Shown in pieces: positions 1 to 6,644 of a stretch of DNA of 6,644 nt (position 1 is its first letter; each line of letters opens with the position of its first letter). A program made the translations under genes and the position numbers. The notes under the pieces were generated by a model, which was not told where the DNA came from, ran no database searches, and saw only the letters and a list, made by a program, of their open reading frames with translations. The stretch is from Candidatus Hermodarchaeota archaeon. Lineage in GTDB: Archaea; Asgardarchaeota; Heimdallarchaeia; Hodarchaeales; Hodarchaeaceae. Where the stretch lies: the NCBI GenBank assembly GCA_048886185.1, contig JBHLKY010000020.1:81650-88293 (forward strand), given 5' to 3'.

Positions 1-2280
1 AATACAGGTGGTGGGTACAGTTACTATATTAATCCAAGAAATTCACGGATTACTAGAAGAAAATACAATTCTCTCCCATATGATCGTCCAGGGAGGTATG
101 TGTATATTCGTGATAATAAAACAGGTGAATACTACTCACCAACTTGGCAACCAGTATTAAAAGAGCTTGATTCATATGAATGCCGACATGGTCTGGGATA
201 TACCAAAATCTCTTCCTCATATAAGGGAATTAAAAGTAGTATTCTCTATTTTGTCCCTATCGATGAAGATATGGAAATATGGAAAATTTCTATTGAAAAT
301 ACAACAAATGTGGATAAAAAATTAGGTCTTTTCTCATATGTAGAGTTTGTCCCTGGTGACGCGTATTCTGATGTTATTGATCATCCTAACCACTCCCACT
401 TCTTATATGCTAATTTTGATCCTGAGGAAAAGGCAATCTATGCGACTAACAAGATTGGGATATCCTTCCTACCTGAAGAAGACCAGTATAAAGATGATGG
501 CTGCTGGGGGAAGTTTGTATTCTTTAAGTCAACGCTAGATATCGTTGCTCATGACTGTAATCGTGATCATTTCATCGGTAGTCCCTATCGTTCTGAATCA
601 AATCCATTAACAGTTGAAAAAGGCCAACTAACTAATTCGATGCTAAATTCGGGCCATGCCTGTGGCGCCTTGCAAAGCAATGTTACTATCAAAACTGGGG
701 GAAAACTTGAATTCTGTATAATGATGGGTGTTGTTGACAGACTTGATTACAAAACCCAAACCCGTAAGATTCTTAATGAATGGACTCCTGAGAGGATCGA
801 GAAAAGTCTTGGTGATTTGAAGAACTATTATGAAGATCTTTTTAGTGCTATACATGTTAAGACTCCAAATGATAAGGTAAATAGACATATAAATGTTTGG
901 AACAAGCTTCAGGCAAAGGTTAATTTCACTGTCTCTCGAGATGCTTCTAGATATCACTGGGGTCTCTCTTATGGTATGGGTTTTCGAGATACCTCTCAAG
1001 ATCTTCTAGCTATGATTATGTTTGATGCTCCAGCTGCTAAGGAAGTCATTAAAGAGCTTGCCAGACAGATGTTCAGTGATGGAACTACATATCATAACTT
1101 CTTCCGAGTGTCTCATGATGGTATTAAAACAGGCCACTCGGATGATCCACTATGGCTGCCTCTTGCAGTTCAGTACTACTTGAATGAAACAGCTGATTTT
1201 GCATTTCTTGATGAAATTGAAATGTATGCCGATGGTAAAAGCGGTACCATCCTTGAACACTGCTATCGTGGTATTGACCAGGTCTGGAGTCAGAGAAGTG
1301 AAAGAAATATACCACTTATTCTTAATGGTGATTGGAATGATGACCTGAATGAATGTGGTAGGCATAAAAAGGGAGAAAGTATGATGGTGGCAGAACAGCT
1401 TTGCGTTGATCTTCAGTTTATGATTGAGATACTAACTTATACCAAAAGAGATCCTAAAAAGGTTAAAGAGTATAATAAAATCAATAAAATCATCACTGAG
1501 GAAATGAACAACTCTTGCTGGGATGGAAAATGGTACCATCGTTTTACCAAAGACGATGGTTCTGTACAGGGCACACATAAGAATGAGCAGGGGCAGATTT
1601 ATCTGAATGCACAATCTTGGGCTGTTATCAGTGGAATAGCAAAAGAAGAACGTGCGGTACAGTGTCTTGATTCTGTTCTCGAATATCTCGATTCAAAAGT
1701 TGGTCCTCGTATCTGTGCTCCAGCATATACGAAATCCGATGCTACCATTGGTGCAGCAACACGAGAAGCGCCAGGTAAAAAAGAAAATGCTTCTATTTTT
1801 AACCACCCTGTTACTTGGTTCATTCAAGCAAATACGATTCTTAAGAGGGGTAACATAGCATTCGAACAATATTATAAAACGCTACCAGAAATCCTATCTG
1901 AAGATCAAGATCTGTTTGCAGTTGAACCTTATGTGTACTGTGAATTTACAACTGGTCCCGATCATAAGGAATACGGGAAGGGTGGTCATTCATGGTTAAC
2001 AGGAACAGCTTCATGGATGTATTTTTGTGGTGTGAATTTCATTTTGGGCATTAAACCCACTTATGATGGCCTCATAATTGATCCATGTATACCAAGTGAA
2101 TGGGATAGTTATACTGCAATTAGGAAATTCAGGAATTCTACTTATAATATTTCAGTAAAAAATCCTAATCATAAAGAATCAGGAATATCTGAAGTCAAGC
2201 TAGATGGAAAATCATTTGAGAGCAATAAATTTCCCGTTTTTGATGATGGTAAGGAACATGTGATAGAAATCATCATGTGA
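1..2280 (+). CDS. GH94 glycoside phosphorylase (cellobiose/chitobiose phosphorylase-like), 5'-partial
   Basis: Frame +1 is open from base 1 (NTGGGYSYYINPRNSRITRRKYNSLPYDRPGRYVYIRDNKTGEYYSPTWQPV), matching the conserved GH94 N-terminal 'SNTGGGYS...GRY.YIRD...YWSPTWQP' segment. The GTG at 100 is therefore internal and the true start lies upstream of the window. Motifs: GMGFRDTSQD (973-1002), GDWNDD with the predicted catalytic acid Asp at 1339-1341, KENASIFNH (1780-1806, phosphate-binding His), SWLTGTASW (1990-2016), and C-terminal GIKPTYDGLIIDPCIPSEW. Stop TGA at 2278-2280; 759 aa lie in the window, consistent with a ~800-aa GH94 enzyme. Substrate cannot be assigned from sequence. Confidence 0.95.
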   Translation, partial: NTGGGYSYYINPRNSRITRRKYNSLPYDRPGRYVYIRDNKTGEYYSPTWQPVLKELDSYECRHGLGYTKISSSYKGIKSSILYFVPIDEDMEIWKISIENTTNVDKKLGLFSYVEFVPGDAYSDVIDHPNHSHFLYANFDPEEKAIYATNKIGISFLPEEDQYKDDGCWGKFVFFKSTLDIVAHDCNRDHFIGSPYRSESNPLTVEKGQLTNSMLNSGHACGALQSNVTIKTGGKLEFCIMMGVVDRLDYKTQTRKILNEWTPERIEKSLGDLKNYYEDLFSAIHVKTPNDKVNRHINVWNKLQAKVNFTVSRDASRYHWGLSYGMGFRDTSQDLLAMIMFDAPAAKEVIKELARQMFSDGTTYHNFFRVSHDGIKTGHSDDPLWLPLAVQYYLNETADFAFLDEIEMYADGKSGTILEHCYRGIDQVWSQRSERNIPLILNGDWNDDLNECGRHKKGESMMVAEQLCVDLQFMIEILTYTKRDPKKVKEYNKINKIITEEMNNSCWDGKWYHRFTKDDGSVQGTHKNEQGQIYLNAQSWAVISGIAKEERAVQCLDSVLEYLDSKVGPRICAPAYTKSDATIGAATREAPGKKENASIFNHPVTWFIQANTILKRGNIAFEQYYKTLPEILSEDQDLFAVEPYVYCEFTTGPDHKEYGKGGHSWLTGTASWMYFCGVNFILGIKPTYDGLIIDPCIPSEWDSYTAIRKFRNSTYNISVKNPNHKESGISEVKLDGKSFESNKFPVFDDGKEHVIEIIM

Positions 2281-2312
2281 CCTTTTTCAAATCTCAAAGA
2301 TCAAGAGACAGT

Positions 2313-2352
2313 TAGTTATAATATGGGTTAATGGATAATATTGTTATAACTA
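2313..2352. repeat. Inverted repeat TAGTTATAA-N22-TTATAACTA in the GH94-mutase intergenic region
   Basis: Perfect 9-bp arms at 2313-2321 and 2344-2352. The right arm overlaps the palindrome GTTATAAC (2343-2350) and the left arm overlaps TATAAT (2317-2322). The repeat is seen directly but its function is unknown. Confidence 0.45.
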
Positions 2353-2442
2353 TCAAATTGATTTTTAATAGCCTAGTTATCATTAATAACCATCATTAAT
2401 TGATACAAATAGTCGGTAGAAAGAGTATAGAGTCGAAAAGAG

Positions 2443-4587
2443 TTGGATGTAAAACAATTTGAAAAATTACTGACAAAAAATGAAGAAATCCTAAATAAAT
2501 TGAATCAAAGAAAGATTCTCTTAATTTCAAACCTTCTGAGTGGAGGGCTTTTACTAGATAAAGAAATAATTGAGTCAAATGCAGCAGTTTTCCCTGATGA
2601 TAGTTCTAGAATTATAGCTATCCTATTAAACTCTGAATATATTGTAAATTATCCTCATCCAGTATTAATTGATTTTTCAAAAACAATAGAATTTTATAAG
2701 AATAATCTCGCTCTACCTGAAAGTGAAAGAATTGAATCTTCCTTTTTAATGTCAAGGATTAATTTTATGGGAACAGATGGTATTCGTGGCAAAATATGTT
2801 TAGAGACAGAGGACTACTTGAAAGATTTTACAACTAAAAATATCCTAACTCCTGAACTTATCAGAAATTGCGTATTTTCATACGCCAATTTATTAGTTTG
2901 TAAGAAGATAATAGGAAAAAATGACACAGTTTGTATTGGAGACGATGGAAGGGATAAAATAACTAATGGAAAATTTAAGGAAGCTGTAATTGATGGTTTT
3001 CTTAGGGCAAATATTCATGTTTATGATTTAGGAATTGTACCTACAGGTATTGTGCCCTATCAAATTCTAAAAAAGGATTTTAAAGCAGGAGCTGTTTTAA
3101 CAGCCAGTCACAACCCATCGAATCAAAATGGGATTAAGTTCTTTCTTTATGGGAGAAAACTTCTACCTGAAGGAGAATTGGGTGATTTTACACTTTCAGC
3201 TTTAATGTATTTTTATTATATGCAGAAAACGTTACCAAAAAGAAGAGCTTCAATCACTATTTCAGAAAATATAGTAGTTGAAAGCACTAATTTTATTCTT
3301 TCAGTTTTACCACAAAATATTACAGACCTTCTAAAGGATAAAGTAATTATTTTTGATTCTGCAAATGGAGCATTTACAGAAATTGGAAAAAATGTTCTAG
3401 ATGCCTTGCAATTAGATTATAAGAATATTAATGACACTCCTGATGGACACAATATAAACAAGAATTGTGGAATAGCAGAATTGGAAGGTCATGATATTTT
3501 CCTCTTTGAATCCATAGTAACTTATCCTCGATTAATAAAGGAAATCTTCTCCATTGGGAAGATGAATGATCCAGGTAAGGTATTTGGTATATCCCTAGAT
3601 GGTGATGGCGATAGAGGATATGTAGTTCATTACAATAAAGAAAAAGATTGTGTTTATGTTATTAATGGTGATAAATGTGGTTATATTTTGGCTGAATATT
3701 TCCTAAAATCGAGAAAAATTAAAGCTAAAGATGTTTATTTTGTATTAACAATTGAATCTGATTTAATGGCTGCCACCAATGTTGAGAAGAATCTTGGCAT
3801 TAAAACAAAAATCGTCAGTGTTGGCGATAAATGGATAGGAAATTTTGATGAGGGAGAATTATTGATTGGAGTCGAAGTTTCTGGTCATGTAATTTTTCCA
3901 ATTGAGTTTATCAATGAATTAAATCAAAAAGTTAGACTTTTAACTGGAAATGGTCTTTTGACTAGTTTATTGGTATTAACAGCCATAAAAGAGTTGGATC
4001 TCTCAATAGAGAAAATTTCTCGGCCTTTTATACCAGGAATTTCTGAAACCTTTTATGTATTCTTCATTGACAAGTCTAGATTCTATAAAGGTAGTACAGT
4101 TTGGATAAAAGATATTGAATTGATAAATAGTGAAATTTCACGGTTAATTGAAAATAAAAGGCTAGGTTCGGATACTAAACTCGTGATAGAGGAAAAAGAA
4201 GACCCAAATGTGTTGTACATAAATATTGTTGATGCAAATGAGATACAAGGGTGCATTTTTATAAGGAATTCTGGAACAGAGGATAAAATTGCCGCATATA
4301 CTCTTGGAAAACAAGAAATGAAGGATATTCTTTACAAAATTGGTGAAAAATTAAGGAAGAATCACTCTTTATTGATGAAAAATAAGGATAAAATTGAGTT
4401 TAAATATGAAAGCCTAATAAAAACTATTCTATGCAAACAACCTATAATAAATCTGCAAGAATTAAAGGGAGTAATGGAACAGACTCTGGAACATCCAATA
4501 AATGAAAATAACCTCTATAATGTAGTATATGGGCTTAAGAAAGAAGGAACTATTAAATTAGACGATCAAATCGTACAATTACAATAG
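2443..4587 (+). CDS. Alpha-D-phosphohexomutase, phosphoglucosamine mutase (GlmM)-like, with N- and C-terminal extensions
   Basis: 714-aa ORF with all superfamily motifs in order: GTDGIRG (2770-2790), TASHNP with the phosphoserine at 3106-3108, metal-binding DGDGDR (3598-3615), VGDKWI, sugar-binding GVEVSGH (3868-3888; GlmM has GGEQSGH), and phosphate loop RNSGTE (4264-4281). The start is uncertain: TTG at 2443 is the first start after the in-frame TAG at 2428-2430, and the alternative is ATG 2749 (MSRINFMGTDGIRG). Stop TAG at 4585-4587. Confidence 0.9.
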   Translation: MDVKQFEKLLTKNEEILNKLNQRKILLISNLLSGGLLLDKEIIESNAAVFPDDSSRIIAILLNSEYIVNYPHPVLIDFSKTIEFYKNNLALPESERIESSFLMSRINFMGTDGIRGKICLETEDYLKDFTTKNILTPELIRNCVFSYANLLVCKKIIGKNDTVCIGDDGRDKITNGKFKEAVIDGFLRANIHVYDLGIVPTGIVPYQILKKDFKAGAVLTASHNPSNQNGIKFFLYGRKLLPEGELGDFTLSALMYFYYMQKTLPKRRASITISENIVVESTNFILSVLPQNITDLLKDKVIIFDSANGAFTEIGKNVLDALQLDYKNINDTPDGHNINKNCGIAELEGHDIFLFESIVTYPRLIKEIFSIGKMNDPGKVFGISLDGDGDRGYVVHYNKEKDCVYVINGDKCGYILAEYFLKSRKIKAKDVYFVLTIESDLMAATNVEKNLGIKTKIVSVGDKWIGNFDEGELLIGVEVSGHVIFPIEFINELNQKVRLLTGNGLLTSLLVLTAIKELDLSIEKISRPFIPGISETFYVFFIDKSRFYKGSTVWIKDIELINSEISRLIENKRLGSDTKLVIEEKEDPNVLYINIVDANEIQGCIFIRNSGTEDKIAAYTLGKQEMKDILYKIGEKLRKNHSLLMKNKDKIEFKYESLIKTILCKQPIINLQELKGVMEQTLEHPINENNLYNVVYGLKKEGTIKLDDQIVQLQ

Positions 4588-4701
4588 AGGTAATCTACTA
4601 CTATAAATCTTCTCTTGTTTGAAGCAATTTTACTCCTATTCTTTTCCATATCTCGATATAGAATGATTCAGATGTTGTTAATTTGTTTACTAAGAAAATT
4701 A

Positions 4702-5865
4702 CTATTTTATGGAGAAAAGCACTTCACCTTTGCATATTGTAGTAAGAACATTAAGCTCAGTGTCAAGAATCACAATATCCGCAACAAAATCTGGAGCTAA
4801 ACACCCGTAATTTGATAATTTCATTGCTTTTGCAGGATTTAATGTTGCCATTTGTACAGCTTCTTTTAGATCTAAGCCTATTTGAGTAACCATATTCTTG
4901 ATTGCGACATCCATAGTCAAAGTGCTACCAGCTAGTCTTCCTGTATCCTTTATTCTACTGATTCCATCTTTGAGTACAGTTTTTAAACCGCCTAATTCAT
5001 ATTCACCATTTGCAAGACCTGTTTCAGCTATGGAATCAGTTATTAAAACTAATTTCTCAATACCCTTTAGTTTAACTACTGTAGTAATGGTTCCTGGATG
5101 AAGATGAACCAGATCTGTAATCAATTCTGCATATACATCATCCCTTACTAAATATGCTCCAATTATTCCTGGTTCTCTATGATGAAAGGGTCTCATACCA
5201 TTGAAAAGATGACTACACATAGTAATACCAGCATCAAATCCTAATATCGCTTCTTTGTATGTTGCATTTGTGTGTCCAACTGCAACAACAATTCCCATTT
5301 CCCTAGCAAATTTAATGTATTCCACTGCCTTAGGAAGTTCAGGTGCAATAGTAATTCTTTTAATATTATTGCCAGAATTTCGAATTAATTCCTTTAATTC
5401 TTCTATATTTGGATTTCGAGCATATTTGATATTTTGAGCTCCTGCTTCTTTCCCCGTGTTTATATGGGGGCCTTCTAGGTGAAGTCCCAGTATTTCTGCT
5501 CCCTCCACTCTCTTTTTAATTACATTTCTTACTACATCACATACTTGTAATAAAATTTCTTGGGACTGGGTCACGGTTGTAGGTATAAAAGAAGTTACAC
5601 CATGTTTCAAAAGAGATTTTGATATTTTAACAAGACCCGACACGTTATTCGTTGTTACATCACAACCACCATAGCCATGTGTATGAATATCAGAAAACCC
5701 AGGGATAGCTATCCCATTAGGATAATATAGAACATCCTTGTATTGCGAGATCTCATTCCAACTTACAAGCTTCTTTATTTTATCTTTTTCAATAATAATG
5801 GCAACTTTCTTAAGTTCTTCTGTTGGCGTTATTGCCCTATCTATTTTTAAAACCAGTTGTTCCAT
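4702..5865 (-). CDS. nagA: N-acetylglucosamine-6-phosphate deacetylase
   Basis: Amidohydrolase NagA motifs: PGFSDIHTHGYGG, GLHLEGPHI, TIAPE, VGHTNAT, SHLFNGM, DLVHLHP, catalytic LITDS, LAGSTLTM, ATLNPAKAM. I prefer ATG 5865 (MEQLVLKIDRAITP, 387 aa) over the ORF-track start at 5937, because it has an AAGGA SD-like site 9 nt upstream and gives a typical NagA length. Stop TAG at 4704-4702. Confidence 0.95.
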   Translation of the reverse strand: MEQLVLKIDRAITPTEELKKVAIIIEKDKIKKLVSWNEISQYKDVLYYPNGIAIPGFSDIHTHGYGGCDVTTNNVSGLVKISKSLLKHGVTSFIPTTVTQSQEILLQVCDVVRNVIKKRVEGAEILGLHLEGPHINTGKEAGAQNIKYARNPNIEELKELIRNSGNNIKRITIAPELPKAVEYIKFAREMGIVVAVGHTNATYKEAILGFDAGITMCSHLFNGMRPFHHREPGIIGAYLVRDDVYAELITDLVHLHPGTITTVVKLKGIEKLVLITDSIAETGLANGEYELGGLKTVLKDGISRIKDTGRLAGSTLTMDVAIKNMVTQIGLDLKEAVQMATLNPAKAMKLSNYGCLAPDFVADIVILDTELNVLTTICKGEVLFSIK

Positions 5866-5874
5866 ATTGAAGCT

Positions 5875-5879
5875 TCCTT
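5875..5879 (-). promoter_or_regulatory. Shine-Dalgarno-like site for nagA
   Basis: The minus strand reads AAGGA-agcttcaat-ATG (5865), a 9-nt spacer. Confidence 0.5.
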
Positions 5880-5951
5880 GGAGTAATAGTAATCCTATAG
5901 CTAATATTGCTTGACCAACATGGCGATCTACCACCAAAAATATTCCTATAA

Positions 5952-5974
5952 GTTTTTATGTTTTATGTAAAAAC
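5952..5974. repeat. Inverted repeat GTTTTTA-N9-TAAAAAC in the divergent nagA/SIS intergenic region
   Basis: Perfect 7-bp arms at 5952-5958 and 5968-5974, with an internal tandem TTTTATG-TTTTATG (5954-5967). It lies near the middle of the 162-bp divergent gap. It is low in complexity, so its function is uncertain. Confidence 0.35.
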
Positions 5975-6016
5975 CAAATAATACTTCTTTGTTTTAATGC
6001 TAGAAACCAGAATTAT

Positions 6017-6020
6017 GGAG
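6017..6020 (+). promoter_or_regulatory. Shine-Dalgarno site for the SIS gene
   Basis: GGAG followed by a 7-nt spacer (ATAAATT) and ATG 6028. Confidence 0.7.
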
Positions 6021-6027
6021 ATAAATT

Positions 6028-6644
6028 ATGCCTGCTGACCAATATTTTGAGGCAATTAGTCGAGTTCTTCTGAGAATTCGTGAAACTCAATCTGAAAAAA
6101 TTAAAAGAGCTGCTCAGGTCATGGCGGAATCCATTGAACACGGAGGAGTTGTTCACATGTTTGGTAGCGGACATTCAGTTATACCAGTCCTCGATATTTT
6201 TCCCCGTTATGGTAGCTATCCTGGTTTTCATCCACTGTTAGACCCGAGGCTGATGTGGTTTAATATTGTTGGGCCAGGAGGGGTTCAAGAGTTGCTTTGG
6301 CTAGAACGTCAAAAGGGTTATGCCGATATCCTTCTCAAACGTAATAGGCTTAATAAAAAAGACATTATGTTAGTTTTCTCTCACGGGGGCATCAATGCTG
6401 TACCTGTTGATATAGCATTAGGAGCCAAGAATTTAGGCCTCTTTGTAGTCGCTGTTACTTCAATGGAAAATCAAGAGAATAGTTTTAATACTCATCATGG
6501 AAGAAGATTATGTGATATAGCGGATATTACAATTGATAACTGTGTACCACCCGAAGATGCACTCGTTAAAATAAAGGGGAAGCGAGAACCAATCGCAGCT
6601 GGTTCCACAGTCGCAATAGTTACCATTGCAATGACTTTGGTAGC
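6028..6644 (+). CDS. SIS-domain sugar-phosphate-binding protein, UPF0309 family (NagS-like), 3'-partial
   Basis: Absent from the ORF track because it runs off the window end. My translation from ATG 6028 is open to 6644 (205 codons): MPADQYFEAISRVLLRIRETQSEKIKRAAQVMAESIEHGGVVHMFGSGHSVIPVLDIFPRYGSYPGFHPLLDPRLMWFNIVGPGGVQELLWLERQKGYADILLKRNRLNKKDIMLVFSHGGINAVPVDIALGAKNLGLFVVAVTSMENQENSFNTHHGRRLCDIADITIDNCVPPEDALVKIKGKREPIAAGSTVAIVTIAMTLV. FGSGHS, D...vfSxxG.N..PV, V+AVTS, G.RL.D+AD+.IDN..P..DA and GST are the UPF0309/GmhA-like SIS pattern. A GGAG SD lies 7 nt upstream. Confidence 0.9.
   Translation, partial: MPADQYFEAISRVLLRIRETQSEKIKRAAQVMAESIEHGGVVHMFGSGHSVIPVLDIFPRYGSYPGFHPLLDPRLMWFNIVGPGGVQELLWLERQKGYADILLKRNRLNKKDIMLVFSHGGINAVPVDIALGAKNLGLFVVAVTSMENQENSFNTHHGRRLCDIADITIDNCVPPEDALVKIKGKREPIAAGSTVAIVTIAMTLV

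Follow-up and report, generated by a model that had tools for sequence, protein, structure and literature searches.

What do four adjacent genes at one end of an archaeal scaffold, all of them predicted to act on sugars or sugar phosphates, do together? The stretch of DNA in question, here called the window, comprises the 6644 nt at G000:C20:81650-88293, where G000 is the source metagenome-assembled genome (MAG) and C20 the 88-kb scaffold at whose end the window lies. It encodes a glycoside phosphorylase of family GH94, an α-D-phosphohexomutase of 714 aa, the N-acetylglucosamine-6-phosphate (GlcNAc-6-P) deacetylase NagA and a UPF0309-type single-SIS protein. The original prediction had assigned these four families, and we find all four open reading frames (ORFs) where it placed them, with Pfam and NCBIfam profiles, the basis of our family calls, in agreement. 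It had also linked the genes into one chain that leads from a disaccharide through a sugar-1-phosphate and a sugar-6-phosphate to NagA. This chain is still the best reading, given the pairing of the first two genes and the GlcNAc and glucosamine (GlcN) context, but the four genes do not form one unit. On balance we think it probable that an acquired cassette of GH94 and mutase splits a GlcNAc disaccharide and works with NagA and a canonical NagB.

Gene neighborhoods were compiled by tblastn of the window proteins and include 79 loci holding mutase relatives, with 43 in-group loci that have at least 2.5 kb of upstream flank. A GH94 gene lies directly upstream of the mutase, on the same strand, in 26 of these 43 loci, and none of the 23 distant out-group loci has any GH94. 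Relatives of the source organism reveal how the pair came to its place. In the closed genome G010 (4.9 Mb, same genus), a ROK-NagB-X fusion gene is followed by a GH2 gene on the same strand and then, in the opposite orientation, by SDR, GH116-like and cellobiose phosphorylase (CBP)-type GH94 genes. Two loci from other Hodarchaeales MAG assemblies (L004 and L005) match this order except that GH94 and the mutase stand between GH2 and SDR. Because of the adjacency in 26 of 43 loci, and because the relatives show insertion of exactly these two genes, we take the pairing to be real, and the data support a genuine functional partnership of GH94 with the long mutase. The spacer between them measures 162 nt in the window, 149 in L005 and 17 in L004; the palindromes in the window spacer, GTTATAAC and GTTAT-N5-ATAAC, could be an operator or a chance occurrence in AT-rich DNA.

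The larger unit of four genes does not hold up in the same comparison. The cassette is followed by NagA on the minus strand and the SIS gene on the plus strand in G000 and in the Hodarchaeota WORE3 MAG, a same-genus genome, whereas L004 and L005 have the cassette without adjoining NagA and SIS genes. The divergent NagA/SIS pair is itself kept in four genomes, and in two of them, G008 and G010, it lies elsewhere and without the cassette.

The cassette has a bacterial ancestry. In a maximum likelihood tree of 81 mutase sequences the four archaeal proteins group together with a support of 100; their sister is the protein of a Spirochaetales MAG (96), and all of these fall within a clade of Spirochaetota and Fibrobacterota (99). 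The long mutase occurs in 2 of 83 genomes of the class and additionally in the two MAG assemblies that carry L004 and L005, and the simplest explanation is that the GH94-mutase pair passed from bacteria to archaea in a single transfer. In the sister bacterial locus (L012) the order is NagB, GH94, mutase, with a GH20 gene facing them, and a further bacterial locus (L028) carries a CsxA-like GH2.

The specificity of the phosphorylase is central to the proposed function. The window GH94 matches PF06165 (E 2e-63) and PF17167 (E 2e-109) with full coverage except for the first 18 positions, which are lost to the assembly gap, as expected of the N-terminal supersandwich and (α/α)6 catalytic domains of the family. 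Its orthologues are 798 aa long and 92-94% identical; the nearest bacterial enzymes come from Chitinivibrionales (63% identity; the genes for this GH94 and its mutase are neighbors on one contig) and Chitinispirillum (55%). The second Asp of the DWND motif aligns with the catalytic Asp492 of the Vibrio N,N'-diacetylchitobiose phosphorylase (ChBP; 1V7V), and the motif is kept in all GH94 relatives compared. The lid loop that follows it spans 15 aa in the window enzyme, 24 in CBP and 11 in Vibrio ChBP. The acceptor segments, whose positions we take to be specificity determinants, read GAATREAPGKKEN..FNHP in the window enzyme, GEISTYPPGYKEN..FCHN in CBP and GFVTRVYQGVKEN..FSHP in Vibrio ChBP. Neither the acceptor segment of CBP, GE-I-S-x-Y-P-P-G-Y-K-E-N, nor its long lid loop is present in the window GH94, and the equivalents of CBP Glu649 and Tyr653 are Ala and Glu. 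It has the T-R and H-P positions in common with Vibrio ChBP (the Val631/His644 region), and the residue at the Val631 position differs. Judged by its sequence, the window GH94 is not a classical CBP and has a few positions in common with ChBP; we designate it a putative N,N'-diacetylchitobiose-type phosphorylase (EC 2.4.1.280).

The CBP acceptor segment and long lid are instead present in a G000 paralogue, C22b (acceptor GEISSYPPGYKEN..FCHT), which is of textbook CBP type, and in the second GH94 of L004 and L005; these genes adjoin GH116/GH3 genes. G000 has two further GH94 genes in all (C22:2804-5083 and C22:15298-17535), one of the classical CBP type and the other with a third acceptor pattern, GGITTFPPGLKEN..FCHT.

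The mutase appears to be catalytically intact. It carries the four phosphohexomutase loops, TASHNP (Ser222), DGDGDR (386-391), GVEVSGH (476-482) and RNSGTEDK (608-615), which are invariant in 16 family members. Its AlphaFold2 model (pLDDT 89, pTM 0.87) has a four-domain core closest to GlmM and archaeal phosphomannomutase/phosphoglucomutase (PMM/PGM) structures, with template modeling (TM) scores of 0.76-0.80. The protein is nevertheless not a GlmM, as it scores 138 bits against a cut-off of 447 with TIGR01455 and has 714 aa and two extra domains versus the ~445-aa GlmM architecture. The extra parts are an α/β domain at the N terminus (aa 1-105, window 2443-2757) and a winged helix at the C terminus (aa ~625-714, window 4315-4584); Pfam gave no match on either extension. 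Every Foldseek match of the C-terminal domain is a winged helix (cullin WHB, MarR/OhrR, RosR, PadR and MCM WH), with TM scores up to 0.79 and weak E-values of 2e-3 and above, and K646, E652, E656, G697, K700 and E701 are invariant in this part of the protein. A DNA-binding or partner-binding role of the winged helix is possible. The family is named N-acetylglucosamine-1-P-mutase in Chitinispirillum and Chitinivibrio, whose proteins are 47% and 44% identical to the window mutase; the name goes back to the papers on these genomes. One other PGM-like gene is present in G000; it is of housekeeping type and shows 26% identity to the 714-aa mutase.

The upstream flank supplies the enzymes that the window lacks. 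As the original prediction cautioned, the window itself holds no kinase and no nagB, but directly upstream, next to the GH2 gene and on the strand of GH94, lies a gene whose 1012-aa product fuses a ROK kinase, a NagB deaminase and a PIG-L/LmbE-like domain. The flank inspection that it recommended yields the ROK kinase and NagB, but only a lone ABC permease and no GH18 chitinase. The original prediction also suggested that the downstream route may be non-canonical. This route is not needed because NagB is present upstream, two genes away, and every SIS-bearing genome has NagB. The NagB fusion was matched in 5 of the 83 class genomes. The GH2 protein scores 504 bits against the exo-β-D-glucosaminidase CsxA and 89 bits against β-mannosidases. 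We ascribe a GlcNAc/GlcN context to the locus because of the ROK-NagB fusion, the CsxA-type GH2 and NagA, together with the GH20 and NagB genes of the sister bacterial locus, and the neighboring genes add independent weight, beside the GH94 residues, on the type of sugar. Farther upstream are a ThuA gene, the permease, which has no partners, and genes for GH130 and GH16; the GH130 gene is also syntenic in G010 and L005. The presence of GH130 together with GH94 hints at phosphorolytic use of the N-glycan core Man-GlcNAc-GlcNAc.

The PIG-L-like domain was considered as a deacetylase of the Thermococcus Dac type. This is unlikely, as its metal and catalytic motifs are degenerate in the clade of the window (SPHPDDD to SCRPGDD and DPHGTH to DPHGLK); relatives at 51-52% identity keep the motifs. 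Dictyostelium also has the combination of NagB and PIG-L, as do bacterial "long NagB" proteins of ~630 aa.

Taking these data together, we infer the substrates and reactions of the following pathway. Module 1, GH94 and the mutase, was acquired, most simply once, from Spirochaetota/Fibrobacterota-like bacteria and inserted downstream of a native operon of ROK-NagB-(degenerate PIG-L) and CsxA-type GH2. The substrate would be imported chitobiose or a similar GlcNAc-β-1,4 disaccharide from chitin oligomers or N-glycan cores. With phosphate, GH94 would convert the disaccharide to GlcNAc-1-P and GlcNAc, the mutase would turn GlcNAc-1-P into GlcNAc-6-P, and the ROK domain would phosphorylate the free GlcNAc. 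NagA would then strip the acetyl group and the NagB domain would produce fructose-6-P and ammonia; for each disaccharide, phosphorolysis would save one ATP. Module 2, the divergent NagA and SIS genes, is a separate conserved pair and would be the source of the deacetylase, and the SIS protein would act on some amino-sugar phosphate without being needed for the path from GH94 to NagB. The window is the junction of two modules in a putative accessory amino-sugar catabolic island of a sediment Hodarchaeales archaeon.

Several observations weigh against this pathway. The window GH94 scores 499 bits against a PDB cellobiose phosphorylase, 426 against Vibrio ChBP (1V7V) and 358 against 8bou, a ranking that is uninformative on specificity because C. 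thermocellum CBP tops every GH94 subfamily tried. The acceptor segment alone also scores higher to CBP, and since both the overall and the segment scores favor CBP, the ChBP-like signal is confined to a few positions. The database names of the window-type GH94 clade, like those of the 700-aa mutase family, are themselves inferences. The mutase core is nearest to GlmM, which acts on GlcN phosphates, and not to the eukaryotic AGM1 (TM ~0.5). In Chitinispirillum and Chitinivibrio the mutase does not adjoin a GH94, and at least three other GH94 subfamilies of uncharacterized specificity also adjoin mutases of the ~700-aa family. The adjacency of GH2 and GH94 in G000 depends on a scaffold join; the two genes are contiguous in L004, L005 and L008. 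No GH18 was found in the genome, a GH19 search of it was uninformative, its controls being blank as well, and the surroundings of the locus showed no complete transporter. The genome has two GH20 genes. Because no GH18 was found, and with GH130 in the locus, we picture the organism as scavenging either oligomers that others release or N-glycan cores.

A different assignment of the sugar would have GH94 phosphorolyse a chitosan-derived GlcN disaccharide to GlcN-1-P, which the GlmM-like mutase would convert to GlcN-6-P for NagB, bypassing NagA; this would be an undescribed phosphorylase activity. The GlmM-like core of the mutase, the CsxA-type exo-β-D-glucosaminidase as operon partner and the cassette of L004 and L005, which has NagB and no adjoining NagA, all fit this scheme. 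A phosphorylase that forms GlcN-1-P is, however, not known (reviewed in PMC8950772), the sister bacterial locus has a GH20 N-acetylhexosaminidase, and the cassette abuts NagA in G000 and G003. As the T-R and H-P positions in common with ChBP also better suit an N-acetyl substrate, we regard the GlcN scheme as unlikely.

Phosphorolysis of cellobiose or another β-glucoside is the second alternative; the mutase would then be a dedicated phosphoglucomutase (Glc-1-P to Glc-6-P) and NagA and SIS mere neighbors. The top PDB scores go to cellobiose phosphorylases, automatic pipelines label the GH94 relatives "cellobiose phosphorylase" and the four-gene adjacency is not conserved. Set against these points, the window GH94 has neither the CBP residues equivalent to Glu649 and Tyr653 nor the CBP lid loop, and a canonical CBP-type paralogue is already present beside GH116/GH3-type genes. 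The conserved neighbors, moreover, are NagB, ROK, the GH2 glucosaminidase and GH20, and the housekeeping PGM-like gene leaves little need for a second one linked to the operon. A glucose route therefore seems improbable to us.

The third alternative concerns the second module. NagA scores 334 bits with TIGR00221 (cut-off 226), covering model positions 5-379 of 380, and is the only copy in the genome (a single tblastn match). Its start is most likely Met25, with the ATG at window position 5865, because the closest relative has a stop codon in the 24-codon extension and AAGGAAG precedes the ATG. The SIS protein scores 221 bits with PRK02947 (cut-off 135); its PDB matches are BH3325 (3cvj, 97 bits) and the GlcNAc-6-P dehydratase NagS (9eol, 83 bits, roughly 30% identical over 199 residues). 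NagA occurs in 4 of the 83 class genomes and the SIS gene in the same four (in a sample of 31 genomes of relatives), a co-occurrence that counts as about one event because the four genomes are close kin. The spacer between the divergent genes, 162 or ~350 nt long, contains an element, CCTATAAGTTTTTATGTTT, that is identical in G000, G003, G008 and G010; it is TATA-like and probably belongs to the TATA/B recognition element (BRE) region of the SIS promoter. The co-occurrence with NagA, the divergent pairing and this 19-nt element in the shared spacer argue for a role of the SIS protein with amino-sugar phosphates. In G010, SIS heads an operon (L091:11037-15998, minus strand) and is followed by genes for a 730-aa GH42/GlmA-like glycosidase, for a ROK kinase and for a GNAT-OB protein. 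NagA points away from this operon, and past NagA lie genes for a PfkB kinase and a GH-like TIM barrel. The operon is a second amino-sugar-type cluster; the queries used did not recover its GH42/GlmA-like and ROK genes in G000. The SIS protein was also considered as a replacement for NagB and rejected, as all four SIS-bearing genomes carry the NagB fusion.

If the SIS protein were a true dehydratase of the NagS type, it would, with NagA, divert GlcNAc-6-P to a second, non-canonical route. The residues essential in NagS, His53, Arg64, Glu94 and Asp179, align with His49, Arg60, Glu93 and Asp177 of the SIS protein, and the divergent pairing and phyletic match with NagA as well as the G010 operon with its GH42/GlmA-like glycosidase and ROK kinase point the same way. 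The four residues, however, mark the UPF0309 family and not the activity, because BH3325 keeps them too; NagS Ser91, an important residue, and Ser121 are replaced by Glu and Gly, and NagS Asn228, likewise important, lies beyond the contig end. The SIS protein is roughly 30% identical to NagS where at least ~59% is expected of an orthologue, its neighbor is NagA and not dmdR1, and its host is an archaeon. NagS activity is restricted to Streptomycetaceae; proteins at 26-36% identity from Clostridium, Paenibacillus and Acidothermus showed no such activity either in vitro or in vivo (PMC12680351). The label "NagS-like" given in the original prediction was thus overstated and, the co-occurrence with NagA being about one event among close kin, we give little credence to a NagS-type dehydratase here. 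That the genes run in the synthetic direction, a possibility the original prediction had also raised, with the mutase supplying GlcNAc-1-P from which GH94 builds a β-linked oligosaccharide, is very improbable: GH94 reactions are reversible (PMC8950772), but the conserved neighbors are all catabolic (NagB, NagA, kinase, exo-glycosidases) and the locus has no glycosyltransferase or export gene.

Beyond the window, the GH94 partners of the mutase family elsewhere include those of rumen Treponema/Spirochaetales (L035-L059), of Firestonebacteria (L041-L054) and of L022/L025/L033, and the acceptor segments of these three subfamilies are distinct (AYKRNAPGKKENGSFFRH; GRTTINQPGFAENGGVYCHA; WNIEKEPPAMKENGGIFMH). 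The three subfamilies have no close characterized enzyme, and by their sequences their specificities may be new. A broader proposal, which we put forward tentatively and would not ourselves favor, is that the ~700-aa mutases are an uncharacterized family of dedicated sugar-1-P to sugar-6-P converters serving at least four GH94 subfamilies, three perhaps with new specificities, and that the UPF0309 protein linked to NagA may catalyze, in archaea, a so far undescribed reaction of an amino-sugar phosphate.

Table 1 Features of the window and its upstream flank. Positions are those of the window unless scaffold C20 is named.
Feature	Position	Strand	Basis or remark
GH94 glycoside phosphorylase, putative N,N'-diacetylchitobiose type	1-2280	+	PF06165 + PF17167; 759 of ~798 residues
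DWND motif of GH94, aa 444-447	1330-1341	+	Alignment to Vibrio ChBP
GH94 acceptor-site segment G-A-A-T-R-E-A-P-G-K-K-E-N...F-N-H-P	1750-1809	+	Alignments, motif table
AT-rich GH94/mutase spacer, 162 nt	2281-2442	.	Palindromes GTTATAAC and GTTAT-N5-ATAAC
714-aa α-D-phosphohexomutase, putative GlcNAc-1-P <-> GlcNAc-6-P mutase	2443-4587	+	Pfam PGM_PMM I/II/III; TTG start
NagA, N-acetylglucosamine-6-phosphate deacetylase	ORF 4702-5937; 4702-5865 from Met25 (387 aa)	-	TIGR00221
Conserved 19-nt element CCTATAAGTTTTTATGTTT in the NagA/SIS divergent spacer	5945-5963	.	Identical in four genomes
UPF0309-type single-SIS protein, 205 of ~251 residues	6028-6642	+	PF13580 (SIS_2) + PRK02947
1012-aa fusion of ROK kinase, NagB deaminase and PIG-L/LmbE-like domain	C20:76628-79666 (= L001:14629-17667)	same as GH94	Directly upstream with GH2 gene
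GH16, GH130 (mannoside phosphorylase family), single ABC permease	C20:71134-74232 (= L001:9135-12233)		

The source MAG (4.84 Mb, 35% GC) is 96% complete. No archaeal SSU rRNA was found in it, and its taxonomic placement is based on the same-genus relative WORE3 and on close homologues that carry names. The window is bordered by a 100-N gap on the left (C20:81550-81649) and by the scaffold end on the right, and for this reason GH94 is short of ~39 N-terminal and SIS of ~46 C-terminal residues; the intact orthologues have 798 aa (L004:7587-9983) and 251 aa (G010, L091:15243-15998, minus strand). A 1412-aa GH2-GH94 fusion was rejected as a read-through of the gap, since in relatives GH2 and GH94 are encoded separately, as proteins of 868 and 798 aa. 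Four sediment metagenomes from a single study contain at least 81% of the words of the window, and no RNA data set is listed as containing it. Contigs from four sediment DNA read runs were all short, and none spans the gap or passes the SIS gene; on either side of the gap, loose contig ends from these reads extend into it with real sequence. For every gene, the nearest homologues belong to MAGs labeled Hodarchaeales, Hodarchaeota or Promethearchaeota. A binning artefact can be dismissed, because other Hodarchaeales assemblies have the same genes in synteny on contigs of 52 and 80 kb and because the native parts of the locus sit in the closed same-genus genome. A 118-aa antisense ORF inside GH94 (643-999, minus strand) matches no family and is in all likelihood spurious.

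Hodarchaeales are archaea usually placed closest to eukaryotes, and their metabolism and gene traffic with bacteria therefore bear on models of eukaryote origin. The locus is a clean, datable case in which two linked bacterial genes were inserted into a native archaeal operon for amino sugars. It suggests that these sediment archaea may scavenge chitin- or glycan-derived disaccharides made by others, and both enzyme discovery and one-pot GlcNAc-1-P chemistry can draw on the GH94-linked mutase family. The concept of the pathway is not new, as it was already proposed for Vibrio and, in PMC4814513, for Chitinivibrio and Chitinispirillum; what is new is that the host is an archaeon, that the history of the insertion is clean and that the mutase family is so large and so closely linked to GH94.

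Compared with known systems, the SIS protein is like NagS (SCO4393) in belonging to the UPF0309 single-SIS family, in the His, Arg, Glu and Asp residues and in the genetic link to NagA, and unlike it in the low score of 83 bits, in the Ser91 and Ser121 positions and in lacking the nagS-dmdR1 synteny that defines orthologues. The mutase is in the same superfamily as AGM1 (PDB 2DKC) and would interconvert the same GlcNAc-6-P and GlcNAc-1-P, but it belongs to a different branch, its proposed physiological direction is the opposite, and AGM1 has no winged-helix tail. The chitobiose route of Thermococcus kodakarensis runs through the PIG-L deacetylase Dac, the exo-glucosaminidase GlmA, a GlcN kinase and GlmD. 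The native part of our locus resembles it in having an exo-β-D-glucosaminidase and a PIG-L-family domain in an archaeon. It differs from it in that the glycosidase is a GH2 (CsxA) and not a GH35, the deaminase is NagB and not the SIS-type GlmD, the PIG-L-like motifs are lost (HPDD to RPGD, HxxH to HGLK) and the phosphorolytic branch has no counterpart there. The Vibrio (GlcNAc)2 operon, reportedly described by Park, Keyhani and Roseman in 2000, is said to use ChBP to yield GlcNAc-1-P and GlcNAc, followed by a predicted GlcNAc-1-P mutase, NagA and NagB. The window GH94 has the DWND Asp and the T-R/H-P positions in common with Vibrio ChBP, but is of a separate subfamily. The Vibrio mutase is an ordinary PGM/PMM type of ~470 aa that lacks the extra N- and C-terminal domains.

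In Chitinispirillum alkaliphilum and Chitinivibrio alkaliphilus (Fibrobacterota), a chitin-oligomer pathway was proposed from genomes and not assayed; it comprises a GH94 N,N'-diacetylchitobiose phosphorylase, a GlcNAc-1-P mutase, a GlcNAc kinase, NagA and NagB, with a GH2 "chitobiase" in Chitinivibrio (PMC4814513). Our locus differs from these in its archaeal host, in the adjacency of GH94 and mutase, in the fusion of kinase and deaminase in one protein of 1012 aa and in that no GH18 was detected. It is like them in the same enzyme set and order, in a mutase of the same ~700-aa family and in a GH94 that is 55-63% identical to the Chitinivibrionia enzymes.

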